Shown: positions 2,948 through 62,106 of the stretch, piece by piece
Numbering within the stretch: the first letter of the stretch is position 1
Layout of the letters: the number at the start of each line of letters is the position of its first letter
Source: Candidatus Aceula meridiana
Lineage (GTDB): Bacteria; Omnitrophota; Gorgyraeia; Zapsychrales; Aceulaceae
Direction of reading: 5' to 3'
Length of the DNA: 62,106 nt
Assembly: GCA_030765185.1 (NCBI GenBank)
Contig: JAVCDE010000015.1
Span: forward strand, 1 to 62,106
Program-made: the position numbers and the translations under genes
The notes under the pieces: model-generated
Databases searched by the model: none
Told to the model about the DNA's origin: nothing
Seen by the model: only the letters and a program-made list of their open reading frames with translations

Positions 2948-3497
2948 CGCAAATCAGGCTTTCTTTTTCCTGGTGATATTTAAGGCCACAAGGACAAACT
3001 AAAGTTTTTTCTAATTTTTGTCCACATCGGCATACAAAACCAACAGGCTTAGCGGGATTACCGACGAGTAAAGCATGAGATGCAACATCTTTAGTCACAA
3101 CGCTCCCGGCACCAATAAAAGCATACTCCCCGATAGTAACGCCGCACAAAACAGTGGAATTGCTTCCTAAGGTTGCGCCTTTTTTAACAACAACTTTTTC
3201 TAAATCCCAAGAGTCGTTATAATGACTTCTTGGATGACGGTCGTTAACAAAAACAACATTCGCTCCACAAAAAACATTGTCCTCTAGCGTGACACCATCA
3301 AAAACGGCAACACTATTTTTAATCGTGACATTATCACCAACAACAGCGCCTTTTTCCACAAAACATCCATCGCAAATATTGCACTGCTTACCAACAGAAG
3401 CCCCATCTTGGATGTTAACAAAAGCCCAGATGCGCGTCTTATCTCCCACGTTAGCTTCTTTGCCAACAAGGGCTAAAGGATGTTTAAAATAATTCAT
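2940..3497 (-). CDS. Left-handed beta-helix N-acetyltransferase, WbpD-like (amino-sugar N-acetylation)
   Basis: Hexapeptide repeats (IWAFVNI, VGKQCNI, VGDNVTIKNSVAVFDGVTLEDNVFCGANVVFVNDRHPRS, GATLGSNSTV, GAGSVVTKDV..VGNPAK) and a C-terminal CRCG..CPCG tail, as in WbpD-type enzymes. Confidence 0.65.
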   Translation of the reverse strand: MNYFKHPLALVGKEANVGDKTRIWAFVNIQDGASVGKQCNICDGCFVEKGAVVGDNVTIKNSVAVFDGVTLEDNVFCGANVVFVNDRHPRSHYNDSWDLEKVVVKKGATLGSNSTVLCGVTIGEYAFIGAGSVVTKDVASHALLVGNPAKPVGFVCRCGQKLEKTLVCPCGLKYHQEKESLICDA

Positions 3498-3500
3498 GCG

Positions 3501-4517
3501 TTACCTAATCTTTATAGGTGCCCCGTTATTTTTTATAGACTCTTGAATAGCAACTAATGCTCGAACAACATCGCCGGCTTTTTTTGCATCAGCCAAATCA
3601 GGAGATGTGTTGTTCTCAATACAATGAATAAAATATTGATCTTGTTTTTTAAGCGGCTCCCCTGTAGCTATCTTAGGAATTGTAATACTTCCCTCTCGCG
3701 ATAAAAGCTGAAACTCTCCATACGTCTGATAAAAAACCTCTGTTTTCTCGACGTGCTTATCATAAAGCTTAATAGGCCCGAGATTATCCAAGTCATCCCA
3801 GACAACCATTTTTTGCCCACCAACAACTGTAATTTGACGAACCTTGCGCGGATCTAGCCAACTGACGTGTACATTAACTAAAATATCATTAGGATATTCG
3901 AGCGTAGCAAAGGCCAAATCTTCTAAGGATGTTTTAAGGGCCTTTTGCCCGCGCGCTGAAACGCTAAGCGGACAAGCATCAAATAAATAATTAAAAATGG
4001 ATATGTCGTGAGGAGCTAAATCCCAAAGCGCATTAACATCATAACGAAAAGGCCCTAAGTTTGTTCTTTCGGAATGCGCATAATAAACATCCCCCAGCTC
4101 TCCGGAAGAAATATATTTCTTAAGATGCGCGATCCCTTCATTAAAAACAAAAATATGACCAACCATCAAAATCTTGTTTTGCTTTTCCGCCAAATTTTGA
4201 AGCTCCTCACACTCTTTAACAACAAGGCTTAGCGGTTTTTCGCAAAGGACATGTTTGCCGGCCAAAAGAGCATCTTTGACAATTTGATGATGTGTCACTG
4301 TTGGCGTTGCAACGCAAACTGCATCAACGTCTTGACTATCTAGAATATCCTGATAATTTTTTGTTACCTTAATGCCAGGATGCATGCCTTTGATTGCACT
4401 TAATCTATCTGCATCGGAATCAGCGCACATCAAGACATCTACATCAGGCATCTGATCAAAAACTCGAAGATGGTTTGGGCCCCAATGGCCGCATCCGACA
4501 ACACCTACAGAAACCAT
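3501..4517 (-). CDS. Gfo/Idh/MocA-family NAD-dependent sugar oxidoreductase (WbpB-like)
   Basis: N-terminal Rossmann VGVVGCGHWGPNH and conserved CEKPL motif. Adjacent to the WbpD-like acetyltransferase. Confidence 0.65.
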   Translation of the reverse strand: MVSVGVVGCGHWGPNHLRVFDQMPDVDVLMCADSDADRLSAIKGMHPGIKVTKNYQDILDSQDVDAVCVATPTVTHHQIVKDALLAGKHVLCEKPLSLVVKECEELQNLAEKQNKILMVGHIFVFNEGIAHLKKYISSGELGDVYYAHSERTNLGPFRYDVNALWDLAPHDISIFNYLFDACPLSVSARGQKALKTSLEDLAFATLEYPNDILVNVHVSWLDPRKVRQITVVGGQKMVVWDDLDNLGPIKLYDKHVEKTEVFYQTYGEFQLLSREGSITIPKIATGEPLKKQDQYFIHCIENNTSPDLADAKKAGDVVRALVAIQESIKNNGAPIKIR

Positions 4518-18486: not shown

Positions 18487-19218
18487 ATGGAAAAAATAAG
18501 CCTATCAGTTATTATCCCTGCCTACAATGAGCAAGACCTCATCCAGGAAACAATTACCCAGATCGACACTTTCTTAAGCCAGAATTTTGCTGATTACGAA
18601 ATTATCATCGTTGATGACGGAAGCCAAGATGAGACTTATAAACGCTGTGCGGCCCTATTAGAAAACTTTCCCCGCCTAAAATTACTTAAAAACGAAGAAA
18701 ATCGTGGCAAAGGCTTTAGCATCAAAAAAGGTGTCTTAGAAGCCTCATCAGATCTTATTATGTTTTCGGATGCAGACCTCTCAACGCCCATCGAAGAAAT
18801 CCTCTCTTTTCTTCCTTGCTTAGAACAAGAATTTTCTATCGCAATTGGATCGCGGGCTATCTCTGGTGCGAATATTATCAAACATCAACCTTTTTTAAGA
18901 GAGTTGATGGGAAAAATATTTAACCTTTTCGTCAAAATATTTGTCTTTACAGGTATCTCCGATACTCAATGCGGATTTAAATGTTTTAAAGCAAATATCG
19001 CCAAAGAACTTTTTCGCTTGCAACGTATTGAAAGATTTTGTTTTGACGTCGAAACCTTATACCTTGCACGAAAAAAAGGCTACAAGATTAAAGAGCTCCC
19101 CATCCGCTGGATTAACAGGGAAAATTCTCGCGTTCACATTATTTTAAGCCCGATTCAAATGTTTCTCAATATCTTGACGATACGCATTAACGACCTCAAA
19201 GGACTTTATGAAAATTAA
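18487..19218 (+). CDS. GT2 polyprenyl-phosphate glycosyltransferase (dolichyl-P-glucose/mannose synthase-like)
   Basis: LSVIIPAYNE, YEIIIVDDGSQDET, NRGKGFSIKKG, FSDADLSTP, DTQCGFKCF motifs. Confidence 0.7.
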   Translation: MEKISLSVIIPAYNEQDLIQETITQIDTFLSQNFADYEIIIVDDGSQDETYKRCAALLENFPRLKLLKNEENRGKGFSIKKGVLEASSDLIMFSDADLSTPIEEILSFLPCLEQEFSIAIGSRAISGANIIKHQPFLRELMGKIFNLFVKIFVFTGISDTQCGFKCFKANIAKELFRLQRIERFCFDVETLYLARKKGYKIKELPIRWINRENSRVHIILSPIQMFLNILTIRINDLKGLYEN

Positions 19219-19223
19219 CAAAG

Positions 19224-19378
19224 CTCCGCGGCCAAAACCGTGGACCTTTCTAATGACCCTGCTTCGCTCTAAGGCTTCTGCCTGGAAGTTTCGCAGGGTT
19301 GCCCATCCGAAAAAAAGCGAACATCCTCCGGAGCAAAAAACGAATTCTCGTTTTCTTCCGTTTCTGCGAAGGATGGAC
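19224..19378 (+). repeat. Structured GC-rich repeat, family 1, copy B (leader of the GT-C gene)
   Basis: Same conserved blocks as 14928-15104. Its 3' block TTTCTGCGAAGGATGGA contains the ATG (19373) of the downstream membrane glycosyltransferase. Confidence 0.65.
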
Positions 19379-20584
19379 AAGAAATGGGCTGCAATTTTAT
19401 TTTTGTGCTTCCTTTTTACAGGGCTCTTTTTTCGATACCTTAACCGCGCGCCAAAAAGACATTTCTGTGATTTTCGTGTTTATCATGCCACTGCTGAAAA
19501 GTTTCTAAACGGCGCGAATATCTACGAAAGAAATAAAGAGTCAGTCACTCCTTACAAATATTCTCCGACTTTTGCTTTTTTGTTTTCTTTTTTGGGGTGG
19601 TTTAGCATCAAAACTTCAAGTCTAGTCTTTTTCTCGCTAAATTTTATTTTTCTTCTTGTGCTCTTCCGGTACTCTCAAAAAATTATCGACCCTGAACTCT
19701 CTTTTAATAAATGCTTTTGGCTCTTCTTTTGGGTCTTTGCGCCGATTTCCAGGTTTGCTTTTCAAGTTCTAGATAGCGGACAGGTTAACATTATTATGGC
19801 GGGGTTGGTAGTCTTGGGTTTATATTTTGCTGACAGAGACAACAATATTGCCGCAGGGATGCTTTTGTCATTATCTATCTTTTTCAAATATATGCCGGCT
19901 TTGCTTATTCCTTATTTTCTTTTTAAGAAGAAATTTCGCCTACTCGGCTGGCTATTTCTTTTTGGAATTGCATTTATGGTCCTACCTCTTATTTATACAG
20001 GGGCAGAGAAATATTTAGCATATACAAAAGACTGGCTTCCCTCCATTGTCTCAACATCCCTAGACCATGGGTCATTGATCGATTATAAAAATCAATCACT
20101 CTATTCTATAATTCTCCGTTTTTTCTGCGAAGAATCACCTTATAAAATTAAATTGATGAATTTAACATTTCAATCAACAATGAGACTCTCAACCATTGCG
20201 TGTTTTGTTCTTTATCTTTTTGCCTTATACCCTCTTTGCAAAAATCGTAAGGAACAACTTCTAGACACTGCGATGCTTTTAATTTGCATGGCTCTTTTTA
20301 ACCCAAACGCCTGGATGATCAATTTTGTTAGCCTTACGTTTGCTTATATGCTCATTTTATATCTTTTTATCCAAAACAAAAAATTATCCGCTTTGATTAT
20401 CTTTGTAATTGCGTTCTTATTGGGTTCTTTTTTCGGGGAGTCTGTTGTGGGTAACGACTTAGAAAACTTTATGGAAGAGGCGTCTTCTGTGACTTTAAGC
20501 AGCTTAGTTTTATTCTTTTATCTTTTCTATTTAAAAATTAATCAATTCATTGAATTGCAACGAGAAAAACTTAAAAGTAGTTAA
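19373..20584 (+). CDS. Polytopic GT-C-type glycosyltransferase (DUF2029/GT87-like)
   Basis: DFRVYHATAEKFLNGANIYE..TPYKYSPTFAFLF matches the DUF2029 N-terminal loop motif. More than 9 TM. The start is ambiguous: 19373 (MDKKW) is preferred, because the upstream 55 codons of ORF 19208 lie in a repeat whose reading frame is not conserved in the other copy. Confidence 0.6.
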   Translation: MDKKWAAILFLCFLFTGLFFRYLNRAPKRHFCDFRVYHATAEKFLNGANIYERNKESVTPYKYSPTFAFLFSFLGWFSIKTSSLVFFSLNFIFLLVLFRYSQKIIDPELSFNKCFWLFFWVFAPISRFAFQVLDSGQVNIIMAGLVVLGLYFADRDNNIAAGMLLSLSIFFKYMPALLIPYFLFKKKFRLLGWLFLFGIAFMVLPLIYTGAEKYLAYTKDWLPSIVSTSLDHGSLIDYKNQSLYSIILRFFCEESPYKIKLMNLTFQSTMRLSTIACFVLYLFALYPLCKNRKEQLLDTAMLLICMALFNPNAWMINFVSLTFAYMLILYLFIQNKKLSALIIFVIAFLLGSFFGESVVGNDLENFMEEASSVTLSSLVLFFYLFYLKINQFIELQREKLKSS

Positions 20585-51239: not shown

Positions 51240-52370
51240 TCATTTAAAAACCTTTTTTATTTTCTCAGAAAAAGTTCTATTTCCGTTTCCGACTTCCTCG
51301 TTACTAATCTGCGCATATTCTTCCAGCAATTTCTTCTGCTGATCCGAGAGTTTCATTGGCACCTGAAGCATTACACGAGCGTATTGATCTCCAACGCCTC
51401 TACCGCGAATATCCGGCATGCCTTTAGCCTTTAAGCGAAATGTTTTTCCGCTCTGCGTCCCTGAAGGAATTTTCATCTTGACTTTCCCTCCGAGCGTTGG
51501 AACGCTAATCTCAGCGCCTAAAGCTGCTTTAACAAAGCTAACCGGTAAATTTATAAAGATATCATTTCCTTCGCGCTGAAATGTTTCATGCCTTTGGACG
51601 CGAATATAGACATACAAGTCCCCTCTTCCGGCCTGGCCAACTTCGCCTTCTCCTTGAACTCTTAACTGCGAACCGCTATCAACTCCAGCTGGAAACTTGA
51701 CTTCAATTTTACGCGTAACACGAACAGCACCTTGCCCTTGGCAAGTTGAACAAAATTCTGTAATAATTTTTCCTTCGCCGCGGCACTCATGGCACGTTTG
51801 CGCCATTCTAAAAAATCCGCTGTTCACGGCAACCTGACCTTGGCCTTGACAAGTTGGACAAATTTTAGAGCTTGTTCCAGGCTTTGCCCCTGTTCCGTTA
51901 CAGGACTTGCAAAGATCGTGTCGGGGAACTTTAATCGTTTTTTTGATGCCCGAGTAGGCTTCCTCTAAAGAAAGCTCAACTTCATATTGAATACTTTTTC
52001 CTCGCCGAGGCCGCCTTGCTCTTCTACCGCCGCCTCCGCCAAAAATATCAAAATCTCCTCCCCCGCCAAAAAGTTGGCTCAAAATATCTTCGAATCCACC
52101 AAAATCTCCTCCACGAAAAATATCTTCAGCTGTATAATTCTGATCAATTCCCGCATGGCCATGCTGGTCATAAAGTTGTCGTTTTTTGGGGTCAGATAAA
52201 ACAGCGTAGGCCTCAGAAATTCCCTTAAACTCTTCTTCAGCTTGCTTTTTCTTTTCCTCAGGAACACGATCCGGATGATGCGAAAGAGCAAGCCTGCGAT
52301 AAGCTTTTTTAATATCTCCTATAGCAGCATCTTTTTTAACACCTAAAATTTCGTAATAATCTTTTTTCAT
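51240..52370 (-). CDS. dnaJ: Molecular chaperone DnaJ
   Basis: J-domain with HPD, a G/F-rich linker, four CxxCxGxG repeats ([32 protein letters not shown]), and a C-terminal substrate domain. Confidence 0.95.
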
Positions 52371-52511
52371 AAATGAACCCCGAGTTTATGGAATCCGCCA
52401 CGCCTTATTGGCGGATGACATAAATTTGCTGGGTGAATTTACCCCGCGTAAGTGGGGTAAATGGTTAATTATTGTCTACGTTAATTCCACGCCAACGAGC
52501 ATAAAAATTTT

Positions 52512-54449
52512 TTATTTAGTATCATCCTCAGCTTCAAAATCAGCGTCGATGACATCTTCTTTTTTAGAATCATTGCTCTTGCCTTGAGAAGTATCCCCAG
52601 GCTGCTCTTGCGGCTCAGCGCCAGGTTCACCCTCAGCCTGCTCACCAGCATTCCCTGCTGCTTGCTGAGAAGCTGTTGCCTTATACATTTCCTCGGCTAA
52701 CTTATGGCTTGCTTTCTGCAAAGATTCCATAACCGGTTTAATCTTTTCAGCATCATTGGTTTTAATGGCTTCTTTTAAAGCGCTTAATTCTTTTTCAATA
52801 TTTTCTTTATCCTCTTTTGAAACCTTATCGCCATATTCTTTTAAAGATTTTTCGGTGGCATAGACAAAGGTGTTGGCTTGATTTAAGATTTCGGCTTGCT
52901 CTTTTTTCTTTTTATCATCCTCGGAAAATTTTTCAGCTTCTTTGACCATTTTATCAATTTCCTCATCAGAAAGCTTAGTCGGTGCAGTAATCTTGATCGA
53001 CTGTTCTTTTCCGGTTGCTTTGTCTTTAGCAGAAACGTGAACGATGCCGTCTGAATCAATGTCAAAAGTAACTTCAACTTGCGGAATACCCCGCATTGCA
53101 GGCGGAATGCCGACAAGATCAAAACGCCCAAGCTCAGCATTGTCGCTAGACATCTGTCGTTCGCCCTGCAAAACACGGATGGTAACCGCTGTTTGATTAT
53201 CATCCGCTGTCGAGAAAATTTGGCTTTTCTTTGTTGGAATAGTTGTGTTTCTCTCAATTAATTTTGTGAAAACACCGCCTAATGTTTCGATTCCTAAAGA
53301 AAGTGGCGTAACATCTAAAAGAAGAACTTCTTTAGCGTCACCTTTAATAATTGAGGCTTGAACCGCTGCGCCTAAAGCTACACATTCCATAGGATCAATG
53401 CCGCGTTCAATTTTTTGTCCAACCTCTTTTTCCACAAATCCTTGAACAATAGGCATTCGAGTTGGGCCGCCAACTAGGATAACTTTATCAATTTTAATAT
53501 CTTCACCAAGCTTTGTTCCTGCATCTTTTAAAGCCTGAGTAATTGGTCCACGGCATTTATCAACAATCGGAGAAACAAGCTCTTCAAGCTTAGATCGCTC
53601 AACTTTTAAATTAAGATGCTTTGGCCCTGATTGATCTGCTGTAATAAAAGGAAGGTTAACATCTGTTGAGATCGTCGATGAGAGCTCAACTTTTGCCTTT
53701 TCTGCGGCTTCGCGTAAACGCTGAAATGCCATTTTATCATTTCTGACATCAATGCCGCTTTCCTTCTTGAATTCTGAACAAATATGGTCGATCAAAAGAT
53801 TGTCCATATCCGTGCCACCTAAATTATTATCACCGCTAGTGGACAATACTTCAAAAGTAGAAGCTTTGTGAGTTTCGTCCCATCCCATTTCTAGAATAGT
53901 AACGTCTAAGGTTCCACCGCCAAAGTCAAAAACCATAATCTTTTGTTCTTTTCCGGCTTTATCTAATCCATAGGCTAAGCAGGCCGAAGTCGGTTCGTTA
54001 ATAATGCGCAAAACTTTTAGGCCTGCAATTTCTCCTGCATCTTTAGTTGCCTGCCTTTGATTATCATTAAAATAAGCTGGCACAGTGATGACAGCTTCTT
54101 CAACCGTGTCTCCTAAATATTTCTCAGCATCAGCTTTAATTTTTTGCAAAATAAAAGCGCTGATTTGCTGCGGGGTAAATTCTTTTCCGGCTGCCGAAAA
54201 CTTTTCACTTGTTCCCATTTTCCTTTTAGCGGCATAAATCGTGCCCTGTGGATTAACTGCAGCTTGTCGTCGAGCAGGCTCGCCTACTAAACGATTTCCG
54301 TCTTTGTCAAATGCTACAAATGACGGAAAAGCTTTTCCGGATGCAACGCCTGCACCTTCTGCTGATGGGATAATATTAGGGCGCCCGCCTTCCATAACAG
54401 CGGCAGCTGAATTTGATGTTCCTAGATCGATTCCGATAACTCTTGCCAT
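52512..54449 (-). CDS. dnaK: Molecular chaperone DnaK (Hsp70)
   Basis: [30 protein letters not shown], and an acidic C-terminal tail. Start at MARVIGID. Confidence 0.95.
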
Positions 54450-54486
54450 TTTTTCCTCCTTAAAGCTTCTCAAGCTTTTTTTAAAA

Positions 54487-55017
54487 TTATTCTTTTTTCT
54501 TGGCGACTTTCACTTTATTGGTACGAACAATCCTATCACCAATCATATACCCTTTTTGAAACTCTTCTAAAACTGTTCCTTCTTCAACTTTGTCATCCTC
54601 CTCTTGCATCAAGACCTCATGGCAATTTGGGTCAAACATTTTTCCCTTTGCTTCAATAGGCTTTACATCATTCTTTTTAAGTAAATCATAAACATGCGCC
54701 ATGACCATCTCAATGCCTTTTAAAAAAGCATCATAGTCTTCATGATTCGCACGAGCGGCTTCAATCGAACGCTCAAGGTCATCAAGAATATTTAAAAACT
54801 CGACGATAAGTTCTTGATTCGCGTATCTGACAAACTCTCCTCTTTCGCGTTCCATGCGCTTGCGGGCATTATCAAATTCTGCAAAAAGACGGATATATTT
54901 ATCTTTATATTCGGCCAGCTCATCAATAATTTTTTGATGCTCTTCTTTAGATAAACAGACATCATTATTTATTTCTTCTTGTTCTTTATCTTTTCGTTTA
55001 TCTTTTTTTAGATTCAT
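54487..55017 (-). CDS. grpE: Nucleotide exchange factor GrpE
   Basis: [37 protein letters not shown]. Confidence 0.9.
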
Positions 55018-55019
55018 TT

Positions 55020-55754
55020 TTAAATCATCCTATCTACGAGTTGAGATAAATATTCCAAAGTCGATACAGCCTTATCGTAATTCATGCGGGTTGGACCTAA
55101 AAGCGCTAAGCGCCCCGATGGACCCCCTTTGCGGCCAAACCGGGAAACCACGAGCGAACAATCTTCCACTCCGGGCAATCCCACTTCTCGCCCGATAAAA
55201 ATCTTAGCCCTTTCGTCAATCTCTCGATCAATAAGCTTTAAAAGCTCCTTCTTCTGTTCCAAAACCTCAAGCATATAGCGAATTTTCTGAAAATTATAAA
55301 ACTCCGGATAACCGGCAACAAAACTAACTCCACGACAAAAAATAAGGTCGCGTCCATCCAAAGAAATAATGCTAGGGTAATGTGTTTCCTGGGCTAAAAT
55401 CTCAGACGTCCTTTCTAAGAGCCCTTCAAGCTCTCCCATCCCTTGGGCATACTCTGCCTGGATACGATCTTTCTCAGTACTCAAAAGATTAATTTCATTC
55501 ATCAGCTTATCAACATAATAACGATATCCCTCTTGGGTCGGTACACGCCCAGCAGAGGTGTGAGGATGGGTCAGATAGCCATCATCTTCGAGCTCTGCTA
55601 ATACATTGCGGATGGTGGCTGAACTTAGGCCACAAAGACACTCAGAAGCAATTTGACTTGAGCCAACAGGCACAACATGGCAAATATATTGCTCTACCAC
55701 ATAGGTTAAAACCTGCTCTTTTCTTTTCTGAGGATCTAGGCGTTTTGTTGTCAT
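55020..55754 (-). CDS. hrcA: Heat-inducible transcription repressor HrcA (short form)
   Basis: N-terminal wHTH (PVGSSQIA..SSATIRNVLAELEDDGYLTHPHTSAGRVPT) and C-terminal LALLGPTRMNYDKAV. Only 244 aa. Preceded by a CIRCE operator. Confidence 0.8.
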   Translation of the reverse strand: MTTKRLDPQKRKEQVLTYVVEQYICHVVPVGSSQIASECLCGLSSATIRNVLAELEDDGYLTHPHTSAGRVPTQEGYRYYVDKLMNEINLLSTEKDRIQAEYAQGMGELEGLLERTSEILAQETHYPSIISLDGRDLIFCRGVSFVAGYPEFYNFQKIRYMLEVLEQKKELLKLIDREIDERAKIFIGREVGLPGVEDCSLVVSRFGRKGGPSGRLALLGPTRMNYDKAVSTLEYLSQLVDRMI

Positions 55755-55908: not shown

Positions 55909-56523
55909 TTAAATCTGCTCCTCAAGCTTTGCAATGAGGCTATTAACTTCTCTGGCAATTTTATCCGGCAAAAGTTTAGTGTCTTCCATCTCTCTTTTAA
56001 GAGATTTAAGCGTTCCAATAAAACGCTTAATGTTGGTTTGTTTTTTTCTTTGCCAGGCTTCTTCGGGATCGTATTCTTCACGCTCGCGCATAAGAGTTGT
56101 TAAATCTTTTCTGACTTCTTGAGAATTCTTTCCCTTTACAAAAATATCTTCTCTAAGTTTTTGATAATCTTGGCGGTCTAAATTCTTTTCCTTCGCTCGA
56201 CGTAAAACATCAACTGCTTCATAGCTAGGAACTTTAGCAGGGTCGGTATCTTTTAGATAATCTTGCTGAAGATATGCAGGTTCTTCTTTTTCTAAAAAAT
56301 AATAAGAACGTAAAAGCTTTAATGACGTAGCCTTGCGGATTCCGATTTCTTTGGTGACATAAGTATCAAACTGCTGATATCCCCATTCTTTGTAATGCTT
56401 GTCTCGCCAAATCGAATAAAGAACACGTCCGAGTTCAATCCAGGAATTCTTAAAATCTTTGGCTGTTGTAATTGCTAAATCACGCAGAGATGATGGCTCT
56501 GCCATGGTTAATAAATCGTTCAT
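55909..56523 (-). CDS. Hypothetical protein, possible HTH DNA-binding N-terminal domain
   Basis: 204 aa with SD AGGGAG. N-terminal WIELGRVLYSIWRDKHYKEWGYQQFDTYVTKEIGIRKATSLKLLRSY looks HTH-like. Charged helical C-terminus. No family recognised. Confidence 0.4.
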   Translation of the reverse strand: MNDLLTMAEPSSLRDLAITTAKDFKNSWIELGRVLYSIWRDKHYKEWGYQQFDTYVTKEIGIRKATSLKLLRSYYFLEKEEPAYLQQDYLKDTDPAKVPSYEAVDVLRRAKEKNLDRQDYQKLREDIFVKGKNSQEVRKDLTTLMREREEYDPEEAWQRKKQTNIKRFIGTLKSLKREMEDTKLLPDKIAREVNSLIAKLEEQI

Positions 56524-56742: not shown

Positions 56743-56772
56743 TTGGCAAAGTACAGAATTACATGCTATATT
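56743..56772 (+). promoter_or_regulatory. Putative promoter of the riboswitch transcript
   Basis: TTGGCA-18 nt-TATATT with extended -10 TGC (TGCTATATT), about 15 nt upstream of the aptamer P1. Confidence 0.4.
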
Positions 56773-56788
56773 TTAAATGTAGAATAAG

Positions 56789-56908
56789 ATGATCGCTCTT
56801 TCATAAAGTTGAAAGGTAAACTACTCCGAAAGGGTAGGGCACAAAGCCGTGAGCCTTAACTTCTTAAGTTCTCTCAAGAAGAAAGGTTGTCTGGTTACCG
56901 TAGATCAT
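56789..56908 (+). promoter_or_regulatory. c-di-GMP-I (GEMM-I) riboswitch aptamer
   Basis: AUGAUC..GAAAGGUAAACUACUCCGAAAGGGUAGGGCACAAAGCCGUGAGCC..GGUUGUCUGGUUACCGUAGAUCAU parallels V. cholerae Vc2 (GGGCAAACC-GAAA hairpin-GGGACGCAAAGCC..GGGGUUACCG). P1 is AUGAUC/GAUCAU. Confidence 0.85.
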
Positions 56909-56928
56909 ACATTTAAATGATTTCGTAA

Positions 56929-56968
56929 AAAAGCCCTTTGAAATTTCTTTCGAAGGGCTTTTTTTTAT
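56929..56968 (+). terminator. Intrinsic terminator (riboswitch expression platform)
   Basis: AAGCCCTTTGAAA-TTTC-TTTCGAAGGGCTT (13 bp including one G-U) followed by T8, 20 nt after the aptamer and just before the SD of the small ORF. Confidence 0.8.
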
Positions 56969-56984
56969 GAAAAGGAGGGTTCAA

Positions 56985-57224
56985 ATGAGAAATTGCTCTT
57001 TAACCAAAATCTTTGCCGTTATGGTGATTGTCTTTACAATGTGCACCATCGCGGAAGCAGGCCAAGGCGCCACAAGGGTCTTTAAGTTTTCTGTGAGAAT
57101 CCCAGAAACCATTCACAACACAAGAAGAGGCCTACGAACAGAAGCTAAAGGGCAAGGATTTATTGCAACGAAAGAAATTCGAGACAGCAGAATTGTAATG
57201 GTGCAGACAACGGTTGCAAAATAA
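56985..57224 (+). CDS. 79-aa secreted basic peptide, function unknown (riboswitch-controlled)
   Basis: AGGAGGG lies 5 nt upstream of the ATG at 56985. Sec signal IFAVMVIVFTMCTIAEA|GQG. The mature part, about 54 aa, is R/K-rich. No family recognised. Confidence 0.45.
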   Translation: MRNCSLTKIFAVMVIVFTMCTIAEAGQGATRVFKFSVRIPETIHNTRRGLRTEAKGQGFIATKEIRDSRIVMVQTTVAK

Positions 57225-57270
57225 AATAGCTTTAAAAAGCAGAACTCTCTTTTTCATTTAAGAACTCTTT

Positions 57271-57306
57271 AAGCCAGGAGTACCTCTCCTGGCTTATTCT
57301 TTTTTC
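57271..57306 (+). terminator. Intrinsic terminator after the small ORF (overlaps the 3' end of the convergent OMP gene)
   Basis: AAGCCAGGAG-TACCT-CTCCTGGCTT followed by ATTCTTTTTT. Confidence 0.7.
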
Positions 57307-60300
57307 TTTACCGGAATGTGGAAAATATAAGTTGTCCCTTCTTGGACATCAATTTTATTAGTGAGCTTTATTAGAGGAAGGTACTCCATAGGGATTGAGT
57401 TGACATCAATAGCAATCTTATGCTCTCCCGCTTCAACATTATCAAAAGAATAAGAGCCCTCAAAATCTGTAACGGCCTCTTTCCCCTCAAGGGTAATGTG
57501 GACACCGTGAATAAACTCATCTCCAGAATCAGGTTTTTTGCTTTGATTCTTGTCATAATAAACTACACCATAAACTCCAGAACTCGTAGAAAGGCCAAAA
57601 TCGACCTTAACAATCTTGTGCGGAACAATTTTAACTTTGGCATAAAGTGGCGTCGTAAAAATATAGCCCTTAGGAACACTGTCAAAATCCATTCCGATTT
57701 GAACCTTCTTACCGCTAATCTTTATTAGATAGCGGCCGTTTTCATCGGTTGTGGTCTCCTTCTTTCCTACCTTTAATGTAATTCCTGGAATGCCTTTTTC
57801 ATCAGAATCTTGCACTCCGTTCATATTCATATCTTTAAAGACGGTGCCTCCAACATGGCCTTGCGGATTCCACCTAACAGGTAGCTCCCAGGACGTGCGC
57901 GCACCTAGCCTAATGTCTGCTTCAAAATAATTTGCAATATCTGAATCTTCAGGCCAGGTCTTACGGGCGGTAGCATCTAGATATATATCAAAATCAGAAT
58001 TCGGCCGATACGAAAGTCCCGCGGTTACAGCAGTTGAATCCTCCCCCGCTAAGAAACTGAAAGAACTTTCTGCTTCTTGTTCGTTGCGATAAGAAAGGTC
58101 TATATTCCCGAAAATGCTATCTGTAAGGTCCTTCCTATAACTTAAGCCCGTGGTCATTGCGCGAGGCTGGCTTCGGTTACCGCTTAAAATCTCATCAACA
58201 AAATAATAATCGTAATCAAGGTAATAGGAAAGCCAGTCAAGAACCGGAACCCGAATGCCTCCACCAAGCCCAATGCGGTCATATTCTGACGAAGGTGAAT
58301 AAGAATATCGACTTCTCTGGTAGGATTGGCGCAAGGTAACAGAGCCCATTCTCTCTGTTGAAAGAAAATCAAAATTCTTAGTTAAATAATTATAAATTCT
58401 AAAATCGCGATATGGCGAAATAAGGCCTGCAGTATCCAACCAATAAACATCTGTATTCCAGGTGGCAGATTGTTCTTCAAAAGGTTTTCGTAAAGATACA
58501 CTAAGATCATAGTTATAGGCATAAGGATTCTCAGGATTAACAGTGAGCCTATCTTTATAAACATTAAAGGAAGAATCTAAGCTAAAACTTTCAGGATGCC
58601 AGAAAAACGCCATAATTCCGCCAACTTCACCTTGACCCGAAGGATTCGAAACAACGGTTGTATAATCTTTTTCAATATCCCTAAAATCTAAAGAAAGGTC
58701 CATTTCAGAATTAAGAGGAAAATCAGCATGGGCTGTCCGGGCAAAATTTTCTTCGTCATGGGCTATCTCAGCAGATAGGTCTAACTCACCAAATTTCTGA
58801 AAAGTCTGAAAAGACATATTTTGATCAGCAAGATAGCTTTCTCGGTCGCTTCCCCAGCCTTCGGCATAATTAAAGTTATACTGATGGTCTCCGTATGGAA
58901 AAAAGCGTATTTGCCCACCCGTTATAAAGGATTGATCCTTAGATATAATTTCAGGTGATACAATCCCATAAGTAGCACGGTCTTGACCATTGATATAGGA
59001 ATACTCTATCGCATCATCAAACAATCTTTGTTCAAAAAGAATACCTCGGAAATATTTTCCGGACAAAGTCAAAGGCGAAAATGTTTTTCGGGCATCAAAG
59101 CCTCGAATGTTAAAATTAGAAATCGGCCCAATCTGCCCATCGATAAGACCTACAGAATACCCTGTTGCTACTGTTTTCTCTGCTTTTTTCTCAAACGTTA
59201 CAGAAGAATCAAGATTTCCATAAGGAGTTTCTCCTGCAAGTAGCATTCTTTGTGTAAAATTAAGTGAAGTTCTTTTTACTTCGTCTAGGTCTTGGTCTGA
59301 ATAGTAAGTGCTCCAGTCGCTTGAGTAATCAAAGCGAAACGGTTCAACTTCCTCTTGCCAGACATCTTTATCAACTCCGAACGGTCTCGATATAGGAATG
59401 GTCACTTGAACATTAAACGACCAACGGCCATGATCTTCCCAAATTAAAAGGGTTGTCCTTCCTCTTTTGTTGTCTGTAGAAATTGCAATACGGTCGCGAT
59501 CAATTCTCTCTAAATTAATAAAGCCAGGAGTCACGATAAGATACCTTTCAATATTCTTGCCTTCAAAAATTAAAGTTTTTCCCATTTCGATTTCTACTGT
59601 TGGCTTATCTGAATAATTCCATAGCTCACCATTTAAATAAATTGTGTCAGGGTCATAGACGGGAACATCAAGCCCCTCCTGCGTTATTGTTTCTACAGTC
59701 CGATTAGTATCAGACTGGCTACTAGACTCTTCTGCTATTTCTAGAGGATCATCTAGTCTTCCCTCTTCTGCCGCGTCTGCCATGCCTCTAGGCTCCTTCA
59801 AAGGCTGTTCTGGCTGTTCCCCCATGCCTTTAGAATTTTCGAGCGACTGCTGGCCTCTTGTTGTTTTTGAAACAGTAGGTTCGGATTGCGACTGGGCAGC
59901 TCTTTGGTCAGACTGATTATCGTTTTGTCTAGGTGTAAAATTCTGGGTAGGTGCTTGTTGAGCTTTCTCAGTCACTATTTCTTCCAAGGTAGTTGTTTCA
60001 CCCTCAGACTCAATAAAATCAGGAATATTTTCTGACTTCTCTCCTGCCATATGCTCTAAGAAATCGAGAGCTGATTCCATAGCTTGTTTTTTTGGATTTA
60101 TATCTTGGGAGGCGACAGGCTCAAGAGGTGCTGATAAATCTTGGCTAATCTCAAGTTCTTTTTCGGACTCAAGCTCTTGCTCGACCTCCTCAGGAAGAAC
60201 CGCAGCTTCAGAGGTTAAAGTTTTTTCATATTGAAAAAGTGCTTGATTAATAAACTGTTCGCGTTTGATGCCAACTGAAGAATCTTCTACCGGAAGGAAA

Positions 60301-60662
60301 GATGGAAAATATTCTTGCTGACTTTGCCCCTTATCTTTTAGAATGTCATCAGCTAATAATTCTCCAGAAGCTTTCTTTTTAAGATCTCTTACCTTTTCTT
60401 CATACTCGATAACTCCTATGCAGCCGTCTTGAAGTCGTTTAATTGTATTTAAAAAATGGAGGGAATCTTTTGCGTTAGGATTTACAATCAACGCTTCTTT
60501 AAAAAAAGCAACTGCGTCAGTGTAGTTGCCTTGCGTTAAAGCTTCCATGCCTTTTTTTTCAAAAAAACTATACGGGATAGGCTCTGTCGCATACGAAGAG
60601 CCAATAAGAAGAGAACCTAAAAGGAGTAAAACTCCTATAGTAAGAAGTGTTTTTTTCTGCAT
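57294..60662 (-). CDS. 1122-aa outer-membrane protein: TPR-like + acidic linker + pilus-N (secretin-N-like) domain + large beta-barrel + two CarboxypepD_reg/SdrD-B-like domains
   Basis: Signal peptide (LLLLGSLLIGSSYA). TPR-like GNYTDAVAFFKEALIVNPN. About 250 aa of E/D/Q/S-rich sequence. VEIEMGKTLIFEGKNIERYLIVTPGFINLERIDRDRIAISTDNKRGRTTLLIWEDHGRWSFNVQV fits the pilus-formation N-terminal domain pattern. About 560 aa of amphipathic Y/F/W-terminated strands follow. C-terminal GGTVFKDMNMNGVQDSDEKGIPGITLKV..TDENGRYLI and GVVYYDKN..GVHITLEG..TDFEGSYSFDNVEAGEHKI are beta-sandwich repeats. Confidence 0.6.
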   Translation of the reverse strand: MQKKTLLTIGVLLLLGSLLIGSSYATEPIPYSFFEKKGMEALTQGNYTDAVAFFKEALIVNPNAKDSLHFLNTIKRLQDGCIGVIEYEEKVRDLKKKASGELLADDILKDKGQSQQEYFPSFLPVEDSSVGIKREQFINQALFQYEKTLTSEAAVLPEEVEQELESEKELEISQDLSAPLEPVASQDINPKKQAMESALDFLEHMAGEKSENIPDFIESEGETTTLEEIVTEKAQQAPTQNFTPRQNDNQSDQRAAQSQSEPTVSKTTRGQQSLENSKGMGEQPEQPLKEPRGMADAAEEGRLDDPLEIAEESSSQSDTNRTVETITQEGLDVPVYDPDTIYLNGELWNYSDKPTVEIEMGKTLIFEGKNIERYLIVTPGFINLERIDRDRIAISTDNKRGRTTLLIWEDHGRWSFNVQVTIPISRPFGVDKDVWQEEVEPFRFDYSSDWSTYYSDQDLDEVKRTSLNFTQRMLLAGETPYGNLDSSVTFEKKAEKTVATGYSVGLIDGQIGPISNFNIRGFDARKTFSPLTLSGKYFRGILFEQRLFDDAIEYSYINGQDRATYGIVSPEIISKDQSFITGGQIRFFPYGDHQYNFNYAEGWGSDRESYLADQNMSFQTFQKFGELDLSAEIAHDEENFARTAHADFPLNSEMDLSLDFRDIEKDYTTVVSNPSGQGEVGGIMAFFWHPESFSLDSSFNVYKDRLTVNPENPYAYNYDLSVSLRKPFEEQSATWNTDVYWLDTAGLISPYRDFRIYNYLTKNFDFLSTERMGSVTLRQSYQRSRYSYSPSSEYDRIGLGGGIRVPVLDWLSYYLDYDYYFVDEILSGNRSQPRAMTTGLSYRKDLTDSIFGNIDLSYRNEQEAESSFSFLAGEDSTAVTAGLSYRPNSDFDIYLDATARKTWPEDSDIANYFEADIRLGARTSWELPVRWNPQGHVGGTVFKDMNMNGVQDSDEKGIPGITLKVGKKETTTDENGRYLIKISGKKVQIGMDFDSVPKGYIFTTPLYAKVKIVPHKIVKVDFGLSTSSGVYGVVYYDKNQSKKPDSGDEFIHGVHITLEGKEAVTDFEGSYSFDNVEAGEHKIAIDVNSIPMEYLPLIKLTNKIDVQEGTTYIFHIPVKKKE

Positions 60663-60680
60663 AGTATAACGTTTTGCCCA

Positions 60681-61490
60681 TCAGTCTCGTACCTGAAGGA
60701 TTTTAAAAGTAGAGTTTTTTGTTTTCTCAAAATCGACTTCCTCGACAAAAGAATCTCCCTCGCCTAATTCAAAAGTTAAAATTAGCGTATAATTCCCACC
60801 GGGAATATTATTAGCAATATCAACAAAAAATGGTGCACTCTCTCCGGGCGGAAGATAGAATGGCTCTATTTCGCCACGGTCTGCAACTATCCCCTCATCA
60901 TCCATAATATAGAAAATTCCTCGAGGTATCAATATGATTTGACTTTTATTTTCAATCGTTCCCAAAAGCTGATTTCCAGCTATAGCGATATCGAGAACTT
61001 TCGCGTCTTTTGAAGCTCCATTCTTTTCTAAAAAGAATAAACATCCTACCCTTGTCACAATCGTGACACCTGTCGCTGTCTTTTTGTCGCGAGAGTTGTC
61101 TTCAAAAAATAAAACACCATAGTAGCCATCTTCCGCATCTTCGGGAAGACGCGCAGAATAAGAAACAGCTTTTTTCCCGTAAGGACCTAACGTAATCTCT
61201 TGCGGCATAAAATTAACTAAATTTGAACAAGACCGGTTGCTCGTTCCCGGAGAAAGAAATTTTTTATTACCATCGAAAGGAGGCACATAAAGAAAATCTT
61301 GCCAATAGGCCTTTACTGATATTTCTTGATCTTTAGTGTTATGGATTATCACCTCTCCGGTAGCTGTCTCTCCGGGATCCAGGGAAAGGTTGACTTTGCC
61401 TTGTTGTAAAAGCATTTGCGAAAAAGCCGGTGTGCAAAAACTTCCAAAGCATAAGCCCAAGAGAAAAATCAATATAAGAATTTTCTTCAT
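60681..61490 (-). CDS. Secreted two-domain Ig-like protein (candidate periplasmic chaperone/assembly factor)
   Basis: Sec signal LLGLCFGSFCTPAFSQ. The beta-rich pattern LSLDPGETATGEVIIHNTKDQEISVKAYWQDF and ITLGPYGKKAVSYSARLPEDAEDGYYGVLFFE is reminiscent of PapD-like/DUF916-type Ig folds. 18 nt upstream of the OMP gene. Confidence 0.45.
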   Translation of the reverse strand: MKKILILIFLLGLCFGSFCTPAFSQMLLQQGKVNLSLDPGETATGEVIIHNTKDQEISVKAYWQDFLYVPPFDGNKKFLSPGTSNRSCSNLVNFMPQEITLGPYGKKAVSYSARLPEDAEDGYYGVLFFEDNSRDKKTATGVTIVTRVGCLFFLEKNGASKDAKVLDIAIAGNQLLGTIENKSQIILIPRGIFYIMDDEGIVADRGEIEPFYLPPGESAPFFVDIANNIPGGNYTLILTFELGEGDSFVEEVDFEKTKNSTFKILQVRD

Positions 61491-61516
61491 GATGTAAAAC
61501 CTTTCCTTTTTCTTCC

Positions 61517-61566
61517 AAAAAGGATTTTAAGGGAAAGGTTAAACCTCTCCCTTAAAATCCTTTTTT
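61517..61566 (-). terminator. Strong hairpin terminator/attenuator between the subunit gene and the assembly genes
   Basis: A 22-bp inverted repeat (AAAAAGGATTTTAAGGGAGAGG / CCTTTCCCTTAAAATCCTTTTT on the minus strand). Its single irregular pair is G-U on the minus strand but A-C on the plus strand. A U-run follows the GC core. Confidence 0.7.
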
Positions 61567-61618
61567 GAATTTTGTCTTGTGTCTCTTTTATTTTTGTATC
61601 GCTTAGCCTTTATTTAAA

Positions 61619-62106
61619 TTACGGCAATGTTGCTGAAACAGTCATTGTACCTTCATAGCTGCCAGGTGCATCAGAATTAGTAAATACTTCAGCGGTTGGC
61701 GGCATCGTACCTTCTTCACCGGTGTTGATTCCGAAGTACATCCTCAAGAAACCACCAGTAAGTTCACTTGGCTGGATAGTTTCATTGACAGTTCCAAAAA
61801 CTTCCTTTGGATGAGCAACAAGTGGTGTTTCTGTCTGAGCTCCTGTCGGACCGGTAACGGAAACAAAAGTAGCAGAACCTTTAACGCCCAAACCGTGAGT
61901 AGTTCCGCCATTAGGATTGTTTCCTTGTTTAAAAAATACTGATGTTGTTGGGTTACCTGTACCGCCTGTTGGCGCAACGTCAACAGCATAATACTCTGTT
62001 GCCATCCAGATTTCATTCACTGTGTCGTAATTCATGTTATACGCCAACGAATTTCCTACCGGCGTCCAGGTTGTTCCAACAACCCTGTTTGCATCAATTG
62101 AAACCC
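61619..62106 (-). CDS. Secreted beta-rich G/T-rich structural subunit candidate (5' end outside the window)
   Basis: The frame stays open upstream of the TTG at 62047 to the window edge (..VSIDANRVVGTTWTPVGNSLAYNMNYD..), so the N-terminus is missing. The C-terminal APGSYEGTMTVSATLP resembles the terminal strand of SCPU/DUF4402/CU-type fimbrial subunits. Confidence 0.5.
   Translation of the reverse strand, partial: VSIDANRVVGTTWTPVGNSLAYNMNYDTVNEIWMATEYYAVDVAPTGGTGNPTTSVFFKQGNNPNGGTTHGLGVKGSATFVSVTGPTGAQTETPLVAHPKEVFGTVNETIQPSELTGGFLRMYFGINTGEEGTMPPTAEVFTNSDAPGSYEGTMTVSATLP

Follow-up and report, generated by a model that had tools for sequence, protein, structure and literature searches.

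Near the end of a 62,106-nucleotide (nt) stretch of Candidatus Aceula meridiana (Omnitrophota), which we call the window in its full length, lies a short plus-strand unit in which a class-I cyclic di-GMP (c-di-GMP) riboswitch precedes the gene for a small secreted peptide. The unit opens with a promoter-like site (56743-56772, + strand), comprising a -35 element TTGGCA, an 18-nt spacer and an extended -10 element TGcTATATT (10/12 with the TG in a sigma-70-like consensus scan), from which we infer a transcript start near 56779. Downstream of the leader are a Shine-Dalgarno (SD) site, AGGAGGG (56973-56979), and the peptide gene itself (56985-57224, + strand; ATG at 56985), with 79 codons and a stop. 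The unit closes with a putative terminator of the peptide transcript (57270-57306, + strand), an 11-bp hairpin at 57270-57296 followed by a T-run, whose 3' arm holds the stop codon (57294-57296) of a convergent gene. An earlier account of this DNA, referred to here as the sequence-only reading, had described the overlap of the terminal hairpin with the stop codon of the convergent 1122-amino-acid (aa) gene, and the coordinates confirm it. It had also named a pair of genes at 18.5-20.6 kb as the sole other plus-strand unit; this is borne out by the layout of open reading frames (ORFs), in which every plus-strand ORF of at least 110 aa other than the pair at 18487-20584 overlaps a longer minus-strand ORF.

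The aptamer and its ligand

Rfam 15 was searched with the whole window on both strands, and the sole match at gathering level was c-di-GMP-I (GEMM-I), RF01051, at 56805-56902 on the + strand (59.7 bits, E 3.5e-09, model positions 1-87 of 87; gathering score 35 bits). The segment comprises P2 with its GAAA loop (56828-56831), P3 and the conserved junctions, and carries the hallmark string AGGUAAAC at 56815-56822 (+ strand) besides the further hallmark strings GGGCACAAAGCC and GGUUACCG. A GEMM-I aptamer with these strings and an AUGAUC/GAUCAU P1 was what the sequence-only reading had proposed; all of the strings are present where it placed them, P1 is found at 56789-56794 and 56903-56908, and the covariance-model search that it suggested returns a score far over the gathering threshold. 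Compared with 200 shuffles, the segment 56780-56970 folds at z = -5.0. Consensus folding with RNAalifold, and the pair counts given here and below, used an alignment of ten leaders, in which the whole leader structure is 96% paired, compared with 41-52% when the partners are slid; in distal P3 all five pairs vary on both sides and 82% of cells are paired. Judged by model score and covariation, the leader at 56805-56902 is a genuine class-I c-di-GMP riboswitch of the known class. The aptamer as such is ordinary, c-di-GMP-I riboswitches being well known.

Two positions bear on the ligand, the presumed equivalents of G20 and C92 in Vc2 numbering. In the Rfam model alignment both candidate G20 columns hold G (56815 and 56816) and the C92 equivalent holds C (56898), and these residues are invariant in 10/10 leaders. 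G20 and C92 are contacts of c-di-GMP, while the cGAMP-sensing GEMM-Ib aptamers have A at position 20 (PMC6140456). Because the window has G at the G20 columns and C at the C92 column, c-di-GMP is the expected ligand. Specificity for 3'3'-cyclic GMP-AMP (3'3'-cGAMP; GEMM-Ib) was rejected, since G, not A, occupies the G20 column in the window and in all related leaders.

The peptide gene and its family

The gene encodes a 79-aa precursor. By inspection, its predicted signal peptide is of the Sec type and consists of a basic n-region, MRNCSLTK, a hydrophobic h-region, IFAVMVIVFTMCTI, and the small-x-small site AEA with cleavage before G, a pattern conserved in the family, all members of which have a signal peptide ending in AEA or similar. 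A lipoprotein reading of the conserved signal-peptide cysteine was rejected, again by inspection, as the preceding F is unfit for a lipobox. The predicted mature peptide has 54 aa, an isoelectric point (pI) of 11.6 and a net charge of +7; across the family the net charge ranges from -3 to +8. Two motifs recur in every member: close to the mature N-terminus x[YF][KR]xSVT[IV]P, and C-terminally Rx[ND]xx[VI]x[VL]KTx[VI]xK. AlphaFold2 modelled the peptide with a helix at residues 3-26, a C-terminal hairpin and an unstructured N-terminal part, which would be compatible with folding on a partner; the model was set aside, its confidence (predicted local distance difference test, pLDDT, 56) being too low.

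The peptide matched no family in Pfam or NCBIfam, and a word-indexed search with the single peptide returned the query itself only. Four small homologues of the peptide emerged when 1.8 billion representatives were searched exhaustively with HMMER, and a profile search gathered 21 family proteins of 67-82 aa, to which the locus L106 adds a 92-aa member (related loci are designated by L numbers throughout). Aligned codon by codon in pairs, the genes agree at 0.30-0.69 of third positions, in each case less than at first and second positions (0.49-0.88), and the ratio of non-synonymous to synonymous substitution (dN/dS) between the window and its relatives is 0.25-0.47, with synonymous sites near saturation. 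These substitution patterns mark the ORF as a real gene under purifying selection. The sequence-only reading had described an AGGAGGG SD site before a small ORF with a Sec signal and no recognisable family; site, ORF and signal pattern were all recovered, and the ORF is conserved wherever the leader is found and evolves like coding sequence. Its further description, of a basic mature peptide of about 54 aa, is right for the window peptide and does not extend to the family, whose charge is variable.

Linkage of leader, peptide gene and neighbouring operon

Contigs for ten family members were fetched for comparison of gene order. In every locus that extends past the peptide gene (all but L092), that gene is convergent with one encoding a ~1020-1120-aa SdrD_B/CarboxypepD_reg protein, which is the outcome that the sequence-only reading had looked for in proposing a search for homologues beside similar outer-membrane-protein loci. 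The upstream neighbours vary among loci and the convergent large gene is constant. Nine distinct leaders besides that of the window match RF01051 at gathering score before the peptide gene, eight of them at 52-61 bits and that of L094 at 39.7 bits; the loci with 52-61-bit leaders are L009, L084, L089, L090, L099, L091, L095/96, L104 and L097. A gathering-level match is lacking in L093, where the leader is cut by the contig end, in L092, which retains the 3' half of the aptamer alone, and in L098 (26.7 bits) and L106 (30.4 bits), which have large insertions between GGGC and ACAAAGCC. Mean nucleotide identity is higher in the leader (77%, ten leaders aligned) than in the coding sequence (58%).

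The association holds when it is approached from the other side. A DNA pattern drawn from the leader only, and hence blind to the peptide, was scanned over metagenome contigs: in 5/5 true hits the peptide ORF follows, and the two further hits are chance matches within coding DNA, without a riboswitch. L106 was reached through a 270-aa protein of the neighbouring operon (51% identity), and there the operon, a convergent 92-aa family member and an aptamer variant are all present. The gene immediately upstream of the unit, encoding a 204-aa protein, is matched best in metagenome-assembled genomes of Omnitrophota, the closest among the best 80 being in Candidatus Aceula lacicola (74% identity). 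These 80 loci were fetched, and of the eight best-matching ones L009 alone had the riboswitch. There it is not beside the 204-aa gene; it stands at the end of, and convergent with, an operon for 202-, 272- and 1078-aa proteins, with a terminator and then an 82-aa ORF behind it. Because L009 keeps the window arrangement away from the 204-aa gene, the riboswitch unit travels with this operon, a putative fibre operon described below, and not with the 204-aa gene. By gene order and homology, then, leader and peptide gene are one conserved, monocistronic unit in a clade of Omnitrophota.

Some of the related leaders depart from the common form. Those of L106 (12030-12187, - strand), L094 (2440-2569) and L098 (1-115) are c-di-GMP-I variants with one or two extra hairpins between GGGC and ACAAAGCC, and at the insertion in L106 the Rfam alignment skips 84 nt against 19 model positions. 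The L106 and L098 variants would escape standard annotation despite having the same genomic position, and L094 is just above threshold. In L092 (2693-3046) the 5' half of the aptamer (P2 and the strands named a and b below) is replaced by coding-like DNA of an upstream gene on the same strand, with the aptamer 3' half, the anti-P1 hairpin, the terminator and the peptide gene intact; this may be a chimeric assembly or a decayed riboswitch.

Organisation of the leader

From 5' to 3' the leader is made up of the promoter, strand a, strand b (GCUCUUUCAUA), the aptamer with a strand that we call Y1, strand a', a variable hairpin, strand a'', the terminator, strand b' (UAUGAAAGGAG) and the AUG. Strand a (AUGAUC, 56789-56794, + strand) is the 5' strand of P1 and pairs with 56903-56908. 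Strand a' (CG(U)AGAUCAU, 56899-56908, + strand) has a double role: its GAUCAU is the P1 3' strand, and the whole segment is the 5' arm of an anti-P1 hairpin. The 3' arm of that hairpin, strand a'' (AUGAUUUCG, 56917-56925, + strand), vies with strand a for a' and engages the CCG of the aptamer core as well. The consensus strings in relatives are UGAUUC for a, GAAAG.G.AGGGC for Y1, CCGU.GAAUCA for a' and UGAUUACG for a''; P1 is accordingly UGAUUC:GAAUCA in relatives and AUGAUC:GAUCAU in the window, a one-pair shortening matched on both strands. An arrangement TTGtAA...TGCTATATT is kept at the promoter position in related leaders.

The RNAalifold consensus of the ten leaders holds P2, P3, the anti-P1 hairpin a':a'', the terminator and a long-range b:b' helix together. 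P1 columns are 88% paired and the anti-P1 hairpin, which is also present in the minimum-free-energy fold of the window, is 94% paired; both are nearly invariant. At L106 the a, a' and a'' strands read AGAUUU, AAGUCU and AGAUUUACG, and in these differing sequences P1 complementarity is intact and an anti-P1 hairpin of 9 bp (-10.2 kcal/mol) can form. That the window, the main family and L106 all conserve a P1/anti-P1 triplet, though in differing sequences, supports the predicted exchange of partners. As modelled, the leader would hold three switching layers, namely P1 against anti-P1, Y1 against the 5' arm of the terminator, and the 5' anti-SD strand against P1. The layout given by the sequence-only reading was sound in the elements that it listed, but two were overlooked: the anti-P1 hairpin, and a 5' strand whose sequence is complementary to that of the ribosome-binding site (RBS).

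Terminator and candidate antiterminator

The sequence-only reading had noted a hairpin and U8 downstream of the aptamer, and an intrinsic terminator was found at 56927-56966 (+ strand), consisting of A6 (56927-56932), the 5' arm GCCCUUUGAAA (56933-56943), a UUUC loop, the 3' arm UUUCGAAGGGC (56948-56958) and U8 (56959-56966). In the window it has 17 pairs and a local free energy of -20.8 kcal/mol; relatives have -18.8 to -23.1 kcal/mol and U7-8. It is 97% paired in the ten leaders, with one pair varying on both sides, and L094 and L098 have a terminator of different sequence. In computations with an enforced fold, the hairpin is compatible with the folded aptamer and P1.

A candidate antiterminator strand lies within the aptamer. 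Strand Y1 (GAAAGGGUAGGGC, 56828-56840, + strand) spans the P2 loop, the P2 3' strand and the junction GGGC, and mimics the 3' arm of the terminator. Among upstream segments it pairs best with the 5' arm and loop of the terminator in 8/8 leaders (-10.6 to -14.1 kcal/mol, shuffle P 0.005-0.025), through the pairings AGGGC:GCCCU and GAAAGU:AUUUUC; in L094 too it ranks first, at -11.8 kcal/mol, with the runner-up at -6.8. In ligand-free ensembles of transcripts that stop short of the terminator 3' arm, the probability of GCCC:(A)GGGC pairing is 0.56-0.95 in 5/10 leaders and 0.23 in the window.

Three other pairings were tried and rejected. The exact antiterminator GAAAGGG:CCCUUU, proposed by the sequence-only reading, is good in the window alone, other loci having GAAAGUG; what survives of that proposal is that the Y1 segment pairs with the terminator 5' arm, in 8/8 leaders. 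An antiterminator formed by freed a'' and the distal part of the terminator 5' arm is found in the window alone (-2.2 kcal/mol) and is absent elsewhere. Pairing of the P3 3' strand GAAGG with CCUUC of the terminator looks compensatory in two lineages (the window and L095), mismatches in three or four, and has an ensemble probability of about 0.

The terminator is absent from L106, where an SD-sequestering hairpin stands in its place. The anti-SD strand of that hairpin, GCCCUCUUUUUUGAG, has Y1 as its best partner, over 15 bp (estimates of -20.7 and -21.2 kcal/mol), a pairing that would make sense solely as an OFF design, because bound ligand would hide Y1 and leave the SD site masked; as read from its pairings, L106 would be a clean OFF design.

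The exchange at L106 (11960-12030, - strand) of a terminator for an SD-sequestering hairpin appears to be a natural swap of transcriptional and translational platforms behind homologous aptamers. With three alternative pairings in ~200 nt, and related lineages that exchange the one platform for the other, the leader offers a compact natural case of one aptamer rewired between transcriptional and translational control.

From these elements we propose that the riboswitch represses its gene. With c-di-GMP bound, P1 (a:a'), P2 and P3 would lock the aptamer; Y1, made of the P2 3' half and GGGC, would then be unavailable, the hairpin with U8 would form and transcription would halt before the gene, in the manner of the Cd1-type OFF switch. 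Without ligand, a'' would capture a' as the anti-P1 hairpin and Y1 would be free for the terminator 5' arm and loop, in a three-way junction (antiterminator, P3 and anti-P1) that would transiently block the terminator. In Cd1 itself, the terminator can be present along with the aptamer, and both are in competition with an antiterminator that is transient (PMC9262584).

Several observations tell against this mechanism. The terminator forms in silico with or without the enforced aptamer and P1, and in the ensembles described above the GCCC:(A)GGGC pairing has a probability of about 0 in 4/10 leaders. The antiterminator is weak, with five G-C-rich and about six A-U-rich pairs closing a loop of ~110 nt, and full-length folds including it are 11-17 kcal/mol less stable than the minimum; it could therefore act only kinetically or transiently. 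GCCC...GGGC is a common terminator stem, and its match to the GGGC of the aptamer could in part be coincidence. Furthermore, related leaders are non-independent observations, and the anti-P1, b:b' and P1 helices are near-invariant in the main family, which thus provides no proof by covariation. The remaining objections come from the RBS.

A proposed ribosome-binding-site layer

Strand b (GCUCUUUCAUA, 56795-56805, + strand) is invariant in 10/10 leaders and complementary to the ribosome-binding region, making it a candidate 5' anti-SD strand. Its counterpart, strand b' with the SD site (UAUGAAAAGGAGGG, 56966-56979, + strand), includes AGGAGGG. In the RNAalifold consensus b pairs with UAUGAAAGG, upstream of and inside the SD site, in a helix that is 98% paired and near-invariant; UAUGAAAGGAG is invariant in relatives save for a G-for-A in L097 that preserves a U-G pair. 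The conserved AUG in UAUGAAAGG was considered as the start of an upstream ORF and rejected, by inspection, as its frame relative to the main ORF varies among loci and no SD site precedes it; its conservation is better explained by pairing with the CAU of strand b.

In the proposed mechanism this would be a second layer, in which a and b together (a+b) pair with the RBS in competition with P1 and mask it in ligand-free full-length mRNA. Taken alone it implies the opposite sign, with the ligand unmasking the RBS through P1 and translation favoured in its presence, and this counts against repression, as does the behaviour of the helix in folding: a+b:RBS is found in ligand-free folds including the consensus, and only enforcement of P1 removes it. 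A possible though less likely alternative is translational activation, in which the terminator is a constitutive attenuator, c-di-GMP locks a in P1 and releases a+b from the RBS, and read-through transcripts are translated only at high c-di-GMP; the anti-P1 hairpin a':a'' would be the relay that frees a+b in the ligand-free state.

Several observations speak for activation. Of all segments of the leader, the ribosome-binding region pairs best with a+b in 7/8 leaders (-13.4 to -17.1 kcal/mol, shuffle P 0.001-0.012), and a', the P1 3' strand, comes second. The helix is in the minimum-free-energy fold of 7/10 single sequences and persists when the antiterminator is enforced, and b:b', the anti-P1 hairpin and the terminator coexist in the consensus of the ten leaders. 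The spacer that leads from the SD site to the AUG shows complementarity with strand a in L009, L097 and L089 (P 0.009-0.023; summed P < 0.0004). Strand a'' was tried as the RBS-masking partner in place of a+b and rejected, being far weaker (-2.7 to -8.1 kcal/mol, compared with -13.4 to -16.6). In L094 the variant strand GCUCUUUUAAUA matches UAAAAGA directly before the AUG, giving a compensatory UCUUUUA:UAAAAGA pairing, in L106 a 5' strand containing CUCUU matches that locus's own SD site, and all three lineages have CUCUU on the 5' side of the aptamer. Ligand-independent terminators within riboswitch platforms have, moreover, been reported (PMC11218506). Set against these points, activation leaves unexplained both the complementarity of Y1 to the terminator 5' arm and loop and the 15-bp pairing of Y1 with the anti-SD strand of L106, and with a terminator of -19 to -23 kcal/mol and U7-8 most transcripts would be made to no purpose. 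By a geometric estimate b:b' could coexist with P1 as a pseudoknot, and b and b' never vary in the main family, so that covariation is wanting here also.

Direction of control

The terminator and RBS layers would thus point in opposite directions. Net repression by c-di-GMP is, as judged from these predicted structures, the most likely outcome, with a probability that we put at about 0.5; it is favoured because termination acts first, the terminator is strong and L106 appears to be a clean OFF design. The sequence-only reading had likewise suggested an OFF switch, and the complementarity on which it relied survives in the form of Y1, complicated by an a+b:RBS layer of opposite sign that it had not seen.

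Rather unlikely, and behind translational activation, is an incoherent combination of both layers. At low c-di-GMP there would be read-through with the RBS masked, and at high c-di-GMP old mRNAs would be unmasked while new transcripts are terminated, giving a pulse of translation as the ligand rises. Both layers are conserved and about equally supported, elements of both recur in L094 and L106, and the c-di-GMP-I riboswitch Bc1 is a described case of such a transcription-translation design (PMC11218506); yet the scheme is a purely in-silico joining of two uncertain helices and requires full-length mRNA to survive long enough for post-transcriptional ligand binding. Very improbable is the notion that the terminated leader of ~190 nt is itself the functional product, as a small RNA or c-di-GMP sponge, with the ORF incidental: a strong terminator in both modelled states and a leader more conserved than the coding sequence would suit it, but an ORF with kept motifs and coding-type substitutions lies behind every leader, L106 has no terminator at all, and the conserved SD site is properly spaced from the start codon.

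Comparison with known riboswitches

Repression of the kind proposed has its closest parallel in Cd1 of Clostridioides difficile, a transcriptional OFF switch (PMC9262584) that shares with the window the aptamer class and a terminator able to coexist with the folded aptamer; its competing, transiently stable antiterminator built from an aptamer strand has a candidate counterpart in the window. The window differs in that the P2 3' half and GGGC would pair with the terminator 5' arm in place of the aptamer 3' closing strand, in giving that closing strand a predicted anti-P1 partner of its own, in its extra candidate 5' anti-SD strand, and in its cargo, a small secreted protein where Cd1 has a flagellar operon. 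Bc1 of Bacillus thuringiensis, with a long platform and dual control (PMC11218506), has a class-I aptamer, a ligand-independent terminator, ligand-dependent pairing of the RBS and two layers of opposite sign, all of which the window shares or is predicted to share. Unlike the window it has two terminators and no 5' anti-SD strand, and at low c-di-GMP its RBS is exposed, whereas modelling has that of the window masked. Vc2 of Vibrio cholerae, the structural reference (translational OFF according to PMC9262584), has in common with the window G20, C92, the P2 GAAA tetraloop and a P1 that matters for binding; the window family, by contrast, carries 5' of the aptamer a bulge of ~17 nt (strand b and a spacer) that separates P1 from the junction, and has a terminator.

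The neighbouring operon and a possible role for the peptide

The convergent large gene is the last of a four-gene Omnitrophota operon (window 57294-62106, - strand; L009 1-5663; L084 10304-16402; L106 5818-11660), which encodes a ~450-aa secreted protein, a ~205-aa subunit, a ~270-aa two-immunoglobulin (Ig)-domain protein resembling a chaperone or WxLIP, and a ~930-1120-aa outer-membrane-like protein, and which bears no family annotation. In the window this last protein (1122 aa, 57294-60662, - strand) has N-terminal TPR and C-terminal SdrD_B/CarboxypepD_reg Ig-like domains by Pfam, to which its homologues add a weak T2SS-T3SS_pil_N match. For the 1122-aa protein itself, searches of Pfam and NCBIfam gave SdrD_B, CarboxypepD_reg and TPR matches only, and neither there nor in its homologues was an usher family found. 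The 269-aa secreted two-Ig-domain protein (60681-61490, - strand) was modelled by AlphaFold2 at a pLDDT of 94.1 with a chaperone-/WxLIP-like fold; Foldseek against the PDB placed first the WxLIP 9i1y of Enterococcus faecium (E 5.5e-13), followed by periplasmic chaperones of chaperone-usher pili, namely CfaA (TM 0.65), YadV, SafB, Caf1M, FimC and CsuC (E 2e-09 to 5e-07). It has more than 100 homologues, mostly unnamed, one of which is called a PapD chaperone by the Joint Genome Institute (JGI). The gene for the putative ~205-aa fibre subunit is cut by the end of the window, which holds its 3' part (61619-62106, - strand) in a frame open to the end that aligns with the full-length homologues of L009, L084 and L089. 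Sequence searches of the PDB with profiles of the 270-aa and 205-aa proteins found nothing. On the structural models, the operon looks like an undescribed chaperone-assisted surface-fibre system.

A resemblance between the subunit and the peptide offers a tentative clue to function. The mature start of the ~205-aa subunit, KTFTLSATVP, and that of the peptide, (S)K(V)YKVSVTIP, both have alternating hydrophobic residues, and hhalign aligned the two N-terminal strands over 21 columns, a weak match (E 8.6e-4, probability 24%). Pilus chaperones complement subunits through strand donation. For WxLIP it has been suggested that a hairpin strand enters the WxL partner (PMC10599100). Because its N-terminal strand resembles that of the ~205-aa subunit, the peptide could bind the same chaperone-like protein or cap the fibre, and we suggest, tentatively, that it may be an accessory or capping element of the neighbouring system; what speaks for this is a weak, local similarity together with gene linkage, and the peptide model is poor.

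Parallels for the operon and the peptide are loose. PapH is a chain-terminating or assembly-inhibiting pilus subunit, and offers an analogy for the peptide only. The same restriction applies to FimI (PDB 7b0w and 9fxb, both listed among the Foldseek matches of the 269-aa model), another such subunit and, as the peptide may be, a small extra protein of a chaperone-assisted fibre system with an N-terminal strand like that of the main subunit. Compared with both, the window peptide, at ~54 aa, is too short for a pilin fold, no usher family was detected in its operon and the similarity is weak. The WxL clusters of Firmicutes (PMC10599100) are like the operon in that the 269-aa model, with its two Ig-like domains, is closest to WxLIP, and in that they hold small and large secreted partners, which in WxL clusters are joined by strand insertion. 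They differ in that the window organism has an outer-membrane-like partner and a 269-aa protein without a C-terminal membrane helix, at ~14% identity; no WxL motif or Pfam WxL domain was found in the window operon.

Surface adhesion structures are typical c-di-GMP targets, and because of this the peptide is a less odd cargo than the sequence-only reading had held: the peptide does lack a family, but its link to an operon resembling a surface-fibre system diminishes the oddness. What is new is a conserved family of ~55-aa secreted proteins without annotation, tied to a putative surface-fibre operon of Omnitrophota, which are known here from metagenome assemblies alone. The riboswitch provides a functional handle on them, as the peptide and, by implication, the fibre system would answer to c-di-GMP, a testable link from signalling to the surface. 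More speculative, and improbable as a whole, is the conjunction of a two-layer device of opposite signs, giving a pulse of peptide when c-di-GMP rises, with a peptide that is a minimal 'donor-strand-only' subunit capping or regulating an undescribed chaperone-assisted surface fibre of Omnitrophota.

Other genomic neighbours

Between the riboswitch unit and an hrcA-like gene lies the gene for the 204-aa protein mentioned above (55909-56523, - strand), which has no significant family; its relatives occur in 223 genome stretches, with 51-74% identity among the best 80, and it is very widely conserved in Omnitrophota. Beyond it is a heat-shock cluster, recognised by sequence resemblance (51240-55754, - strand), with hrcA-like (55020-55754), grpE-like (54487-55017), dnaK (52512-54473) and dnaJ (51240-52370) genes. 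In L091 the c-di-GMP riboswitch unit has as a neighbour a fluoride riboswitch (RF01734, 51.2 bits; 3478-3541, - strand), which precedes crcB and DUF190 genes. Upstream of the unit in L084 (1634-8516, - strand) are genes for large signalling proteins (CHASE-PAS, FIST and GAF-histidine kinase), which might feed into the same pathway.

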